Shown: positions 31,251-50,665 of the stretch, piece by piece
Numbering within the stretch: position 1 is the stretch's first letter
Layout: the number at the start of each line of letters is the position of its first letter
Source: an uncultured cyanobacterium
GTDB lineage: Bacteria > Cyanobacteriota > Cyanobacteriia > Cyanobacteriales > Cyanobacteriaceae
Assembly (NCBI GenBank): GCA_963710605.1
Contig: CAVQBA010000006.1
Coordinates: 672,001 to 736,000, forward strand
Length of the DNA: 64,000 nt
Reading direction: 5' to 3'
Notes under the pieces: generated by a model
The model's input: the letters and a program-made list of their open reading frames with translations, nothing else
Told to the model about the DNA's origin: nothing
The model's database searches: none
Position numbers and translations under genes: made by a program

Positions 31251-32276
31251 ATGTTTGGTCTTATCGGTCATTTAAGCAATTTAGAACAAGCTCAAATACA
31301 AACAGGGAAACTTGGTCATCCTGATTACGCAAAAGAAGGATTTGAATTTTGGTGTTCTGCACCTCCTATTCTAATAGATGAATTTCAGGTCACTAGTGCA
31401 ACAGGTAAAATTATAGAGGGGCGTTACATCGAATCTTGTTTTTTACCTGAAATGTTAGGTAAACGTAGAATCAAAACGGCTATTCGCAAAATATTAAATG
31501 CAATGGCTTTAGCCCAAAAAAATGGTCTTAATATAACGGCTTTAGGTGGCTTTTCTTCAATTATTTTTGAGGAGTTTAATCTTAAACAAAATAAACAAGT
31601 TCGTAATGTTAATTTAGAATTTGAAAGATTTACGACAGGTAATACTCACACTGCATATGTTATTTGCCGTCAAGTTGAACAAGGTTGTGCTAAAGTTGGT
31701 ATTGATTTAAGTAAAGCGACAGTAGCTGTTTGTGGGGCAACCGGTGATATCGGTAGTGCTGTTTGTCGTTGGTTAGATAAAAAAACTGATGTGGCTGATT
31801 TGCTTTTAATCGCTCGTAATCGTGAGCGTTTAGATAATTTACAATCAGATTTAGGTAGAGGTAAAATAATGAGCTTAGAAGAGGCTTTACCTCAAGCTGA
31901 CGTTATTGTTTGGGTTGCTAGTATGCCTAAAGGTGTTCATATTAACAACGATATAATCAAAAAGCCTTGTCTATTAATTGATGGCGGTTATCCTAAAAAT
32001 TTAGGTACTAAATTTGACCATCCTGAAATTAAGCTTTTAAATGGTGGTGTTGTTGAGCATTCTTTGGATATTGATTGGAAGATTATGGAAACTGTCGATA
32101 TGGATATTCCTAGCCGACAAATGTTTGCTTGTTTTGCTGAGGCTATGTTACTAGAATTTGAGCAATGGCATACTAATTTTTCTTGGGGCAGAAATCAGAT
32201 TACTGTCGAAAAAATGGAACAAATTGGTGGTGCTTCTGTTAAGCATGGTTTTCAACCTTTACTTACTTTTTCTTGA
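31251..32276 (+). CDS. aar: long-chain acyl-ACP reductase (alkane pathway)
   Basis: [56 protein letters not shown]. Confidence 0.95.
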
Positions 32277-32610
32277 TCATTATAAAAGCACCCGGTGTAA
32301 CGCTGATGTTATCGCTGAGTTTGAAGTTGTAAAAAGCTTCTATTTGGTAGGGAGTGGCTCGATCGCCAATATTGTTTGGACTCAGCAGACTTGCTCCCTT
32401 ACCTGCGGCTACCCGATGTATAGGTTGTCCTCCCAAAATACCAGCTAAGTTCCCTTCAATAAAGGCATCAGGGAAATAAAAACCAGCCATCCAACTAGTA
32501 AGATTGGTATAAGCTGAACCTCCTGTTTCATCTACCATGGTGTAAGCCCCATAAGTCGTAAAGGATATTTTAGGGTTAATACGCCAAGTTAAAGTAGCTC
32601 CCACAGAATT
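32275..32610 (-). pseudogene. fragment of a cyanobacterial OprB-like outer-membrane porin
   Basis: WMAGFYFPDAFIEGNLAGILGGQP...IEAFYNFKLSDNISVTPG; lacks the N-terminal SLH/barrel and the terminal strand. Confidence 0.75.
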
Positions 32611-33060
32611 ATAGTCTTAATTGTCAATAATTTTTACTTAAATAATTCCTTTTTAAATGTTATTTATTACTATTTATTGTTTCAAGCTTAAAATTGGGTA
32701 GATTAATTAATACTTACTAGGCTTTAATTTTACTGTGATTAGCTTTGCGTTATTTACTTTTATTAGTAAGTAGAATTATTTATTTAAATCATTATTTTGA
32801 CTAGAAATTCCTAATTTATTATTACTGTATAATTGTTTGAGAGCTTCATTTGGAGAATAATTTACTAGTGGCTCGTAATAATGAATAATGGCATTGTGAT
32901 TGCTTGTTTGTCTGTTATTATTTGATTCACAATTGGACAAAAACAATTTATTAAAAGAGTAGGAAATAAAAAAATAAAGAATTAGATTGAATCAATAGTA
33001 TCAATTTCCGTTAAAATAAATATTACTATTGACCAACAACTTTTTTGTAGTGATTTATCA

Positions 33061-41085: not shown

Positions 41086-42267
41086 ATGACTACTGAAAAA
41101 GAAAGAATATATTGGTTAGCATGGTCGAAGATAAGAGGTTTAGGCCCTGTTTCACTCAAAAAAATCTATAATCATTTTGGTAGTCTAGAAAAGGCTTGGT
41201 ATTGTGCGGATAATCAATATTTACAAGTAGATGGTATAGGTAAAAAAAGTCTAGTCTCTTTGGTTGAAGAAAAAGCGAAAATTGAGCCTGAAAAACTATT
41301 TATTCAACATCAACAACAAAATCCTCATTTTTGTACTCCTAGTGATGCCGAATACCCGCAATTGTTATTAGAAATACCTAGTACTCCTGCGGTGTTATAT
41401 TATACTGGTGATTTAAAATTAGCTCAAACCGAAGGAGTCAATCATCTAATAGGGATTGTTGGGACAAGAAATCCGACCGAACATGGTCGTAGATGGACTT
41501 ATAATATCAGTCAGGCATTAGCAAAAAGTGGTTTGACGATCGTTTCTGGTTTGGCTAAAGGTATTGATACTGTCGCTCATCGTGCTTGTTTAGATGTTGG
41601 TGGAAAAACGATCGCTGTTTTAGGAAATGGACTCGATCGAGCTTATCCTTATCAAAACAAGAAATTAATGGCAGAAATAGCTGAAAAAGGGCTTATACTG
41701 ACAGAATATGAATATGGTAGTACCCCCGAAAGAGGAAACTTTCCTGCTCGTAATCGAATTGTAGCAGGGTTATCTAGAGCAGTATTAGTAATGGAAGCAC
41801 CAGAAAAATCAGGGGCATTAATTACCGCCCGTTATGCTAATGAATTTAATCGAGATGTATATACTTTACCTAATACTCCAGATAATTTACAAGCTAGAGG
41901 ATGTTTGAAGTTGATTCATAAAGGTGCAGAAGTTATTATCACTGAAGAAGAATTATTATCTAGTTTGGGTGATATTCCTAGTTTGACTCCTTCTGCTTCA
42001 CAACAATTATCTTTATTTAATTCGACTAACGAAACGACTAGCCAAACAACAACTGAATCTATACCTACGCCAACTAAATCAAATCGTCCTGATTTACAAC
42101 CGCCTTTTGCTACAGTCTATAATGCGATCGCTTCATCTCCAACTTCATTAGATACCATCGTCAATAATTCGGGATTAAATGCACCTGAAGTATCGGCTAT
42201 TCTATTGCAATTAGAGTTAGATAGTCTTGTGACTCAATTACCCGGAATGATGTACAAAATCAATTGA
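41086..42267 (+). CDS. dprA: DNA processing protein DprA
   Basis: IVGTRNP, VSGLAKGID, FPARNRIVAGLS, SGALITA. Confidence 0.95.
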   Translation: MTTEKERIYWLAWSKIRGLGPVSLKKIYNHFGSLEKAWYCADNQYLQVDGIGKKSLVSLVEEKAKIEPEKLFIQHQQQNPHFCTPSDAEYPQLLLEIPSTPAVLYYTGDLKLAQTEGVNHLIGIVGTRNPTEHGRRWTYNISQALAKSGLTIVSGLAKGIDTVAHRACLDVGGKTIAVLGNGLDRAYPYQNKKLMAEIAEKGLILTEYEYGSTPERGNFPARNRIVAGLSRAVLVMEAPEKSGALITARYANEFNRDVYTLPNTPDNLQARGCLKLIHKGAEVIITEEELLSSLGDIPSLTPSASQQLSLFNSTNETTSQTTTESIPTPTKSNRPDLQPPFATVYNAIASSPTSLDTIVNNSGLNAPEVSAILLQLELDSLVTQLPGMMYKIN

Positions 42268-42272
42268 TAATT

Positions 42273-42373
42273 GCGGTGGAAGCCCGCGTCGGCGAAAGAC
42301 GCAAGCGGTCAGAACCCGCGACGACTATAAGTCGCAAGGGAAGGCTGACCAAGACGGGAATGTCCACCAAGAC
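42273..42373. mobile_element. self-nested small structured repeat (50-nt outer plus 51-nt inner copy)
   Basis: inner copy 42305-42355 aligns end to end with the rejoined outer copy; compensatory stem changes. Confidence 0.8.
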
Positions 42374-42604
42374 GAGAATTGAGAATTGATAATTAAAATT
42401 GTAGCAATAGTATTGTTTAATATCAGTTAACGCTCCGATTCTATTTGTAATCATGTGATACTCAAAAACAGTCGATTGAGGAAAACTTCTCCTCTCTCTT
42501 GAATTGATTTATAGCCTCAAACAAATAAATTCCTCTGTGTACTCTGCGACCTCTGCGGTTAATAATACGATAAAGTATAAAGACTCTAACCAATCCATTA
42601 AGTA

Positions 42605-43660
42605 ATGAAAATATTAATATTATCCACACCTGTAGGTGCATTAAGCTCAGGTATTGGTGGAGGAGTGGAATTAACGATTTATAATCTAATTGGGCAGTTA
42701 CTTGCACGTAATCATCAAGTTAGAGTAGTCGCCCCGAAAGGTTCACAATTTGATGGTGTTGATATTATTGGAATAGATGGTAATGTGCATATTCCTGCTC
42801 AAACCCAAAATCGTGATACACCTATCACCATGCCTGAAAATTCAGTTTTAGCTAATATGTGGGAATATGCTCGTCAAATACAATCAGATTATGACATCTT
42901 GGTTAATTTTGCTTTTGATTGGCTTCCTTTTTATTTAACTCCATTTTTCCAAACTTCGATTGCTCATTTTATTAGTATGGGTTCGTTATCTGATAGTCTA
43001 GACCAAATGATGACTCAAACTGCTTGTTTATATCCGCAAAATTTTGCAGTTTACACCCATGCCCAAGCACTCACTTTTCCTTTTGCCCAAGTCTGTCAAT
43101 CTTTAGGTAGCGGTATCGATTTATCTTTATACCAATTCCAGCCAGTCGCTACTAACAAATTAGCTTGGTTAGGTAGAATCGCCCCCGAAAAAGCCCTTGA
43201 AGATGCCGTTAAAGCCGCCCAAGTTACTAAGATACCATTACTAGTTTTTGGTAAAATTCAAGACGAAAACTATTGGCAAAATATCCTGACAGAATATCCT
43301 CATGCACCGATTGAGTATCAAGGTTTTTTATCTACTATTGATTTACAACGAGAATTAGGTAATTGTAGTGCTTTACTAATGACTCCTCGTTGGTTAGAGG
43401 CTTTTGGTAATGTCGCCATTGAAGCTTTAGCTTGTGGTGTTCCTGTCATTAGTTATGCTAGAGGAGGTCCAGCCGAGATTGTCATTGATGGGCAAAATGG
43501 CTTTTTAGTTACTCCTGATAGTGTAGAAGGTTTAGTCGAGGCAATCAAAAAAATTGACCAAATCGATCGAGAATATTGCCGTCAAATTGCCGAACAAAAA
43601 TACTCTTTAGATAGTTGGGGCGATTGATTTGAAGCATGGTTGTTATCAATTGACAGTTGA
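42605..43660 (+). CDS. glycosyltransferase family 4; TGA at 43625 may be an error for CGA
   Basis: LGRIAPEK, EAFGNVAIEALACGVPV; reading CGA gives DRFEAWLLSIDS*. Confidence 0.88.
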
Positions 43661-50345: not shown

Positions 50346-50665
50346 TTTAACTATAATATTTTTGCTTAATTAAGAAATTTGATTTGATTTATCTTAGCGT
50401 CTGTATCATCAAATGAGTAGTTATTCACAAATAATTTAAGGTACTAACGTACAAAAAATAAACTAACAATTTTTTTAGAGAAAGGCACTATTTAATGTAA
50501 GACACATTTTTAATTTTAGGTTTCTAGTTAACTTTAGTTAACGTGCATGGTTAGCCTTGAACTTAAGTTCAAGGCTAAGATAAAATCGTTCAATAAATTG
50601 AACTAAAATTATGGCAAACTTAGAAGAATAATGAAATTATCGTGAGGTCAAAGATTTATTTTAGC

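Follow-up and report, generated by a model that had tools for sequence, protein, structure and literature searches.

The DNA directly behind dprA in the window, by which we mean the whole 64,000-nt stretch from an uncultured cyanobacterium analysed here, carries a 51-nt element nested inside a diverged 50-nt copy of itself, and both copies belong to a family that is almost certainly mobile. Its members are dispersed, begin at an exact 5' end, insert into one another, keep a conserved rod-like fold and reside in frame within genes, all of which could be seen directly. As for the way in which they move, the explanation that we would put first, at slightly less than even confidence, is that a folded single-stranded unit is joined to its target in trans by an HUH/Y1-type enzyme encoded elsewhere.

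Layout of the nested block

The dprA gene (41086..42267, + strand; an ORF call with Pfam PF02481, DNA_processg_A, at E 7e-77, and DprA_WH) has its stop codon within the first heptamer of a host array, the left part of which (AATTGAT plus AATT, 42262..42272, +) supplies T as base -1 of the target. The block starts at 42273, hence 5 nt past the stop, as the earlier note had placed it. The 5' part of the outer element (42273..42304, +) consists of the GC foot, the closing-stem arm GGTGGA (42275-80), the loop AG, CCC, a distal hairpin (42286-42302) and an AA bulge. At this bulge (GCAA|GGG) sits the inner element (42305..42355, +), without duplication, and behind it the 3' part of the outer element (42356..42373, +) resumes with GGG, the loop AATG, the arm TCCACC (42363-68) and the unpaired tail AAGAC. 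The sequence of the host array then continues with GAG AATTGAG AATTGAT (42374..42390, +), G being target base +1. The reconstruction proposed earlier was borne out, in that taking out the 51-nt inner copy rejoins a 50-nt outer copy, and taking out both leaves the heptamers in register and free of duplication, from AATTGAT (42262-68) across AATT|GAG and AATTGAG to the AATTGAT that ends at 42390. The two copies differ, in fact, by the compensatory pairs that had been described, with double changes at three pairs of the closing stem and at one of the distal stem. Both have a twin with 100% identity in the source genome (G000), an intact 50-nt unit at C6:537771-537820 for the rejoined outer copy and C7:445595-445645 for the inner one. 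The inner element was scored at 58.1 bits (E 1e-15) by covariance model R1, and fold z-scores were -4.56 for the inner copy and -5.59 for the 101-nt block, with 0/200 shuffles as good.

Such a strong fold directly past a stop codon could point to a regulatory RNA or terminator fixed at the dprA 3' end. As an origin of the block this is refuted, and we attach virtually no weight to it: when the dprA 3' ends of relatives were compared, the block was absent in 17 genomes (14 and 3 more), some of which have heptamer runs there without the element (in G001, of the same genus, the match was limited to the first 105 residues of dprA), and elsewhere the family lies beside unrelated genes in either orientation. 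Nor did a search for an already described family return any Rfam match at gathering scores, the best for the block being 17.3 bits against a cut-off of 50, and for eight other loci 23.3 bits against a cut-off of 48. Downstream context is given by a glycosyltransferase gene (42605..43627, +; PF00534). Between it and the element, a CTCTG-rich short repeat at 42540-42565 looks, by eye, like a further type of host repeat, one that the element occupies in other genomes (L055, L251).

Copies in the source genome

The source genome was scanned recursively with a pattern made of the ends and the closing stem, with the reversed genome as a control, and 54 units were found against 3 in the control, with the CCC/GGG core in 47. 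The hosts are the element itself (12/54 units, at the same bulge site as the 42305 copy), TACTCCT heptamers (8/54), AATTGA(G/C) heptamers of the type behind dprA (7/54), GTAG-type hairpins (7/54), GTTGATA-type heptamers (5/54), CCTCTCCT hairpins (5/54) and others (10/54). Each host type is entered at a single site and in a single orientation, and empty host hairpins are frequent in this genome (35 and 22).

Eight loci, the one behind dprA included, carry the same composite of a GGTGGA-type outer and a GGTCAG-type inner copy, near-identical and 101-103 nt long, in four host types. Because it recurs in four host types and no free, un-nested copy of the GGTCAG inner type was seen in the source genome, this composite may move whole; recombination, or nesting that happened independently several times, would fit as well, as the outer copies vary like un-nested ones. 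At the dprA site, the composite may have arrived whole rather than by two separate insertions. A few units share the ends of the family and have a different middle, in register within the same hosts. One of these few, at G000 C7:410081 (+), is a sister element of 51 nt with GCGG and CAAGA ends and another middle, noticed on the opposite strand within copies of the dprA-block family (also C4:1172020-1172123 and C1:220565-220711). In deeper nests ACCG replaces GGG after the inner copy (G000 C1:252203-252359, C4:1143697-1143820, C6:367903-367973), in Okeania nests (L069, L143, L154) the bases preceding the inner copy come close to being the complement of its tail, and a second self-insertion site, the internal loop (GGGAA|CGC), was seen at L303 (G328 C160).

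Three copies in the source genome lie in tnpB-like genes, so labelled by similarity to L174, where an in-frame copy resides in a tnpB of 437 aa with OrfB_IS605 and Cas12f1-like domains; one of the three genes keeps an intact 420-aa frame with 17 residues added by the element. Another observation concerns tnpB-type genes of several genomes, where one and the same site, K-K|G-Y-P, holds different variants in frame (L064, L099, L169, L174, L191; G000 C6:583081-584343).

Ends, target and orientation

The core of the element measures 49 nt at 129/137 sites, the next bases being GA (86) or CA (36). Distinct filled junctions number 336, and the fetched DNA contained a matching empty junction for 62 of them, most of these empties being other copies of the host repeat rather than orthologous alleles. 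In these pairs the unit is 51 nt long in 43 and 50 nt in 19 (18 of the 19 from the source genome), and the target was duplicated at none of the 62 sites. The idea that a single A is duplicated was rejected, as 51-nt copies also occur after T (L072, L130). At one DDE-transposase site (L321), the longest frame is obtained by removing 48 nt. Overall, the 3' junction is variable (unit of 48-51 nt, with a tail varying by 0-3 nt) and the 5' end is fixed, a fixity that is partly built in, as the search pattern requires an intact 5' end.

A variable 3' junction is less typical of exact HUH cutting. A tail that varies where priming would occur, combined with a fixed 5' end, would rather suit a very small folded RNA, copied in trans by a reverse transcriptase and joined to DNA, its arrays arising from rolling-circle copying of circular RNA, and Elhai et al. 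(2008) reportedly proposed an RNA route for the SDRs, the small dispersed repeats to which we return below. We consider such a route unlikely here, though deserving of attention, and the observations that bear on it are given in turn.

Base -1 is A at 83% and T at 13% of 111 sites, and 98 A and 12 T were counted in 110 metagenome sites; base +1 is G in most cases, and purines predominate in the upstream flank. No guide-like base pairing or covariation between element positions and target was found in 121 sites. Among 234 sites, 49 units lie in sense and 19 in antisense within open frames, and a target matrix derived from the other 166 sites predicts a sense fraction of 0.60-0.67, from which 49:19 is not different (p 0.37). 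As this coding-strand bias matches the purine-rich target preference, DNA is the likely target, and no orientation result requires an mRNA target. Insertion into mRNA as the only route was rejected, since true antisense insertions exist and target composition explains the bias; that orientation is explicable without transcription also weakens the case for a reverse-transcribed RNA. The intergenic copies of the source genome are oriented with the upstream gene in 32 cases and against it in 24 (p 0.35), and in this genome, whose skew is very weak, the G-rich strand carries 22/57 copies (p 0.11). In G302 and G315 the strands of the element are interleaved.

Fold and covariation

The canonical 51-nt unit reads GCGGT...ACCAAGA-N-A, its foot being GC and its tail AAGA-N(-A), and the monomer folds as one rod. 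In this rod the closing stem of 6 bp leads through an internal loop (2x4) to the CCC/GGG helix, and a bulge of 2 nt separates that helix from the distal stem of 5 bp. The three-stem element pictured in the earlier note is thus right as to the number of helices (6 + 3 + 5 bp), but these are stacked as one rod in the monomer and branch only when nested. The covariation set comprised 87 sequences selected from 109 distinct cores, plus two, among which kin are not independent. RNAalifold recovered the same 14 pairs from the 87 sequences, in which 99.3% of cells pair, 193 cells carry double changes and 8/14 pairs are doubly changed; the covariation score was reached by 0/500 shuffles, and slid controls pair in at most 46%. 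Six invariant pairs are fixed by the search pattern, and all eight free pairs covary. In 119 distinct 49-mers, moreover, the top six mutual-information pairs are all stem pairs, and the stem cells comprise 1616 Watson-Crick, 30 G-T (20 of them in one column), 5 A-C and 15 other combinations. The loop variants GGTTTCC and GGAAACC are both present. That the structure is under selection, as had been claimed, agrees with the conservation of pairing over the 87 sequences, but arm-to-arm correction could equally maintain it.

Several features of the fold lean towards the RNA route: the unpaired bases of the + strand are A-rich, G-T exceeds A-C by 30 to 5, so that the wobbles lean to the + strand, and the RNA fold of the + strand is well defined (frequency 0.90 vs 0.22). 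Against it, the + strand gives the more stable RNA fold in only 39/119 variants.

Distribution in other genomes

Pattern matches were found in 74/401 genomes of the order, with 0 in the reversed control, which together with the 54 units of the source genome confirms, on the earlier note's own terms, that other copies exist, and in 8/201 genomes of a sample of the phylum. In the species collection, 117 stretches came from 7/64 parts (about 1200 estimated overall), and all 117 named stretches are cyanobacterial, mostly from Okeania, Moorena, Xenococcus, Crocosphaera, Lyngbya, Spirulina and relatives. Metagenomes yielded 123 stretches from 8/64 parts; in plasmid records the window block was unmatched and another variant was found in 4 records.

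Matches among viral contigs were confined to one, a phage contig of 99.9 kb (G538, IMGVR_UViG_3300045998_000148) with four head-to-tail arrays on one strand and a period of exactly 51 (32177-33039, 43494-43644, 50389-50488). Two of the arrays begin with a 5'-truncated unit, an observation in favour of the RNA route, and one ends with a 3'-truncated unit; at least two lie in frame within ORFs, and isolated unit fragments are also present. Being head to tail with a period of 51, these arrays could stem from a circle or a concatemer, or from an element inserting at its own tail. The head-to-tail arrangement was seen in 0/110 metagenome sites, the same contig also carries unrelated tandem duplications, and neither an RT or HUH family nor a mover gene was found in the 85 of its 105 called ORFs that were scanned.

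It could be argued that the family has no mobility of its own and is spread by gene conversion between similar repeats and as a passenger of transposons or larger repeats. Passive spread does occur: in G002 C1, 12/12 full DDE_5 transposase-type elements carry the same variant at the same codon, with no empty copy seen (this DDE_5-type element forms two subfamilies 82% alike, and the inserted unit creates a stop, e.g. in L220 and L229); many G328 copies have common flanks beyond the heptamers, and chimeric nested copies indicate recombination (L247). Identical or near-identical units are found, however, in unrelated hosts and unique flanks, and the 336 distinct filled junctions have in common a target consensus that conversion cannot create, and we therefore hold purely passive spread to be highly improbable.

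Search for the mover

The earlier note had left the mobilising enzyme unnamed and had pointed to HUH/RAYT, IS200/605 and reverse-transcriptase genes as candidates for co-occurrence. In a comparison of 16 genomes with at least 10 matches and 16 related element-free genomes, which is limited by draft assemblies and kinship, no tested candidate tracks the element. Group II-type RT was found in 12/16 high-copy and 11/16 element-free genomes and, at E<=1e-30, was not found in 4/16 high-copy genomes, G328 with its 57 matches included. IS200/IS605-type TnpA was found in 13/16 vs 12/16, RAYT-type Y1 in 8/16 vs 8/16, and Y1 resembling subclass 1.2, as defined in an excerpt of PMC6006769 and queried with a 92-aa piece, in 5/16 vs 3/16, while for IS110 the result was 0/32 genomes at E<=1e-25, a threshold so strict that the count carries no information. 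RtcB was present in 12/16 high-copy and 14/16 element-free genomes; the source genome, which is 85% complete, has no RtcB candidate, and nine family members have one. With respect to the RNA route, the 18 reverse-transcriptase matches in the source genome speak for it, and the RT and RtcB counts against it.

No mover gene was seen beside the copies at the source-genome loci, nor at the 30 of 57 G328 loci inspected by eye; the neighbours at 60 source-genome loci resemble ordinary genes, as judged from their N-terminal sequences. The 450-nt flanks of five low-scoring Y1 genes contain no element copies. A frame-broken Y1 gene of the source genome (C1:190168-190452, L466) has a Q-KEHH motif like that of subclass 1.2 in the excerpt of PMC6006769.

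The lack of co-occurrence with any tested enzyme family favours yet another explanation, namely a different, uncharacterised recombinase, or host repair that captures the folded strand where the repeats' own nucleases have nicked them. The hosts are many unrelated kinds of repeat, and the patchiness of the family even within a genus (26 matches in G433 and 0 in six congeners) fits chance acquisition together with a common host function. On the other hand, the exact site and single orientation per host type suggest a specific strand-transfer step, and ordinary coding sequence also receives insertions. We regard this explanation as rather improbable.

A possible mechanism

Going into the tests, we had rated an RNA route as the probable one and an HUH route as unlikely. 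The shift to an HUH-like DNA route came about because target composition explains the orientation, the stems are almost purely Watson-Crick, and some high-copy genomes gave no match to group II-type RT. In the HUH/Y1 scheme, the gene-less 50-51-nt element would be a folded single DNA strand, cut out or copied by an HUH/Y1-type enzyme and transferred into single-stranded DNA after A or T, with no duplication of the target. The enzyme would recognise the closing-stem foot (5' GC-GG ... CC-AAGA tail), as suggested by the fact that the ends are preserved even in units with an exchanged or enlarged middle. As the intermediate we would expect a single-strand circle, closed at a junction, tail|GCGG, that would resemble the target A|G, and copy number would be partly passive, with host repeats and transposons carrying the element along.

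Two hints of HUH chemistry can be named. According to the portion of PMC8266576 on which we draw, TnpA-REP cleaves at a CT dinucleotide, and the A|G junction reads CT on the opposite strand. Moreover, positions 7-43 of the element resemble, by eye, the IS200/IS605-type right ends of the source genome, of which 8 were found; in IS200/IS605 elements a guide tetranucleotide pairs with the cleavage site (PMC5934647, in part). A covariance model aligned positions 7-41 to one IS right end at E 7.5, which is not significant, and units without the 7-43 core also occur. Since the likeness to IS ends is on the + strand and CT on the - strand, at most one of these hints holds. Against an HUH/Y1 enzyme, no Y1 type tracks the element, no guide-target pairing was seen, and no replication-strand bias was apparent among the 57 copies of the source genome, given its very weak skew. 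Alternatively, the unit might be defined by its hairpin foot alone and be a closed single-strand dumbbell that carries folded cargo, such as other copies or other repeats, and is moved by an enzyme of an undescribed type, its core perhaps derived from an IS200/IS605 right end, a prospect that we rate as fairly remote.

Significance

In the literature that was searched, no mover of micro-repeats of the SDR kind was found. The family described here is long enough for its parts to be mutated one at a time, its ends are defined, and its target consensus derives from more than 300 junctions. It is present in cultured strains, among them Xenococcus sp. PCC 7305 with a high copy number, adds 17 residues in frame to proteins, and offers a concrete substrate (the predicted circle junction and the A|G target) for an enzyme hunt. 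There would be practical use, too, for an inserter that leaves no scar and takes up cargo within a single hairpin.

Comparison with known systems

Unlike MITEs mobilised by DDE transposases, the dprA-block family shows no target-site duplication (0/62 sites). The absence of duplication is instead shared with IS200/IS605 elements (PMC5934647), and by eye positions 7-43 recall their right end (a tetranucleotide, a CCC...GGG hairpin with a 3' bulge, a spacer and the paired tetranucleotide); the family differs in having one hairpin rather than left and right subterminal hairpins, and in lacking a fixed target tetranucleotide or guide-target pairing (121 sites). With REP/REPIN-RAYT systems, as portrayed in excerpts of PMC8266576, PMC6006769, PMC3733652 and PMC3116915, it has in common a short hairpin, unpaired feet, strand specificity and many copies. 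It has no GTAG foot, however, its ends being GC/GG and AAGA-N-A, it is a single unit and not a doublet, it inserts into GTAG-type hairpins, and its copies do not flank RAYT genes in the source genome. The family is not described in the portions of the literature that were covered (including PMC3733652, PMC3116915, PMC4476775 and PMC6513891); Elhai et al. 2008 and its supplements lie outside this coverage and may include it.

Among the SDRs, SDR5 inserts precisely in HIP1, according to an excerpt of PMC4390886, and our family differs in targeting A|G or T|G and not HIP1. The likeness to SDRs is nonetheless extensive, both being gene-less, dispersed and structured, with compensatory changes, precise insertion, and nesting in heptamers and in themselves. 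For the SDRs of Nostoc and its relatives, Elhai et al. (2008, Genome Res 18:1484) reportedly gave a length of 21-27 nt and described nesting in heptamer repeats and within SDRs themselves. The dprA-block family is about twice this length, with a core of 49 nt and a tail of 1-2 nt, and differs in being a rod with an internal loop and a bulge. Judged by these general features of SDRs, it belongs to their kind as a longer variant.
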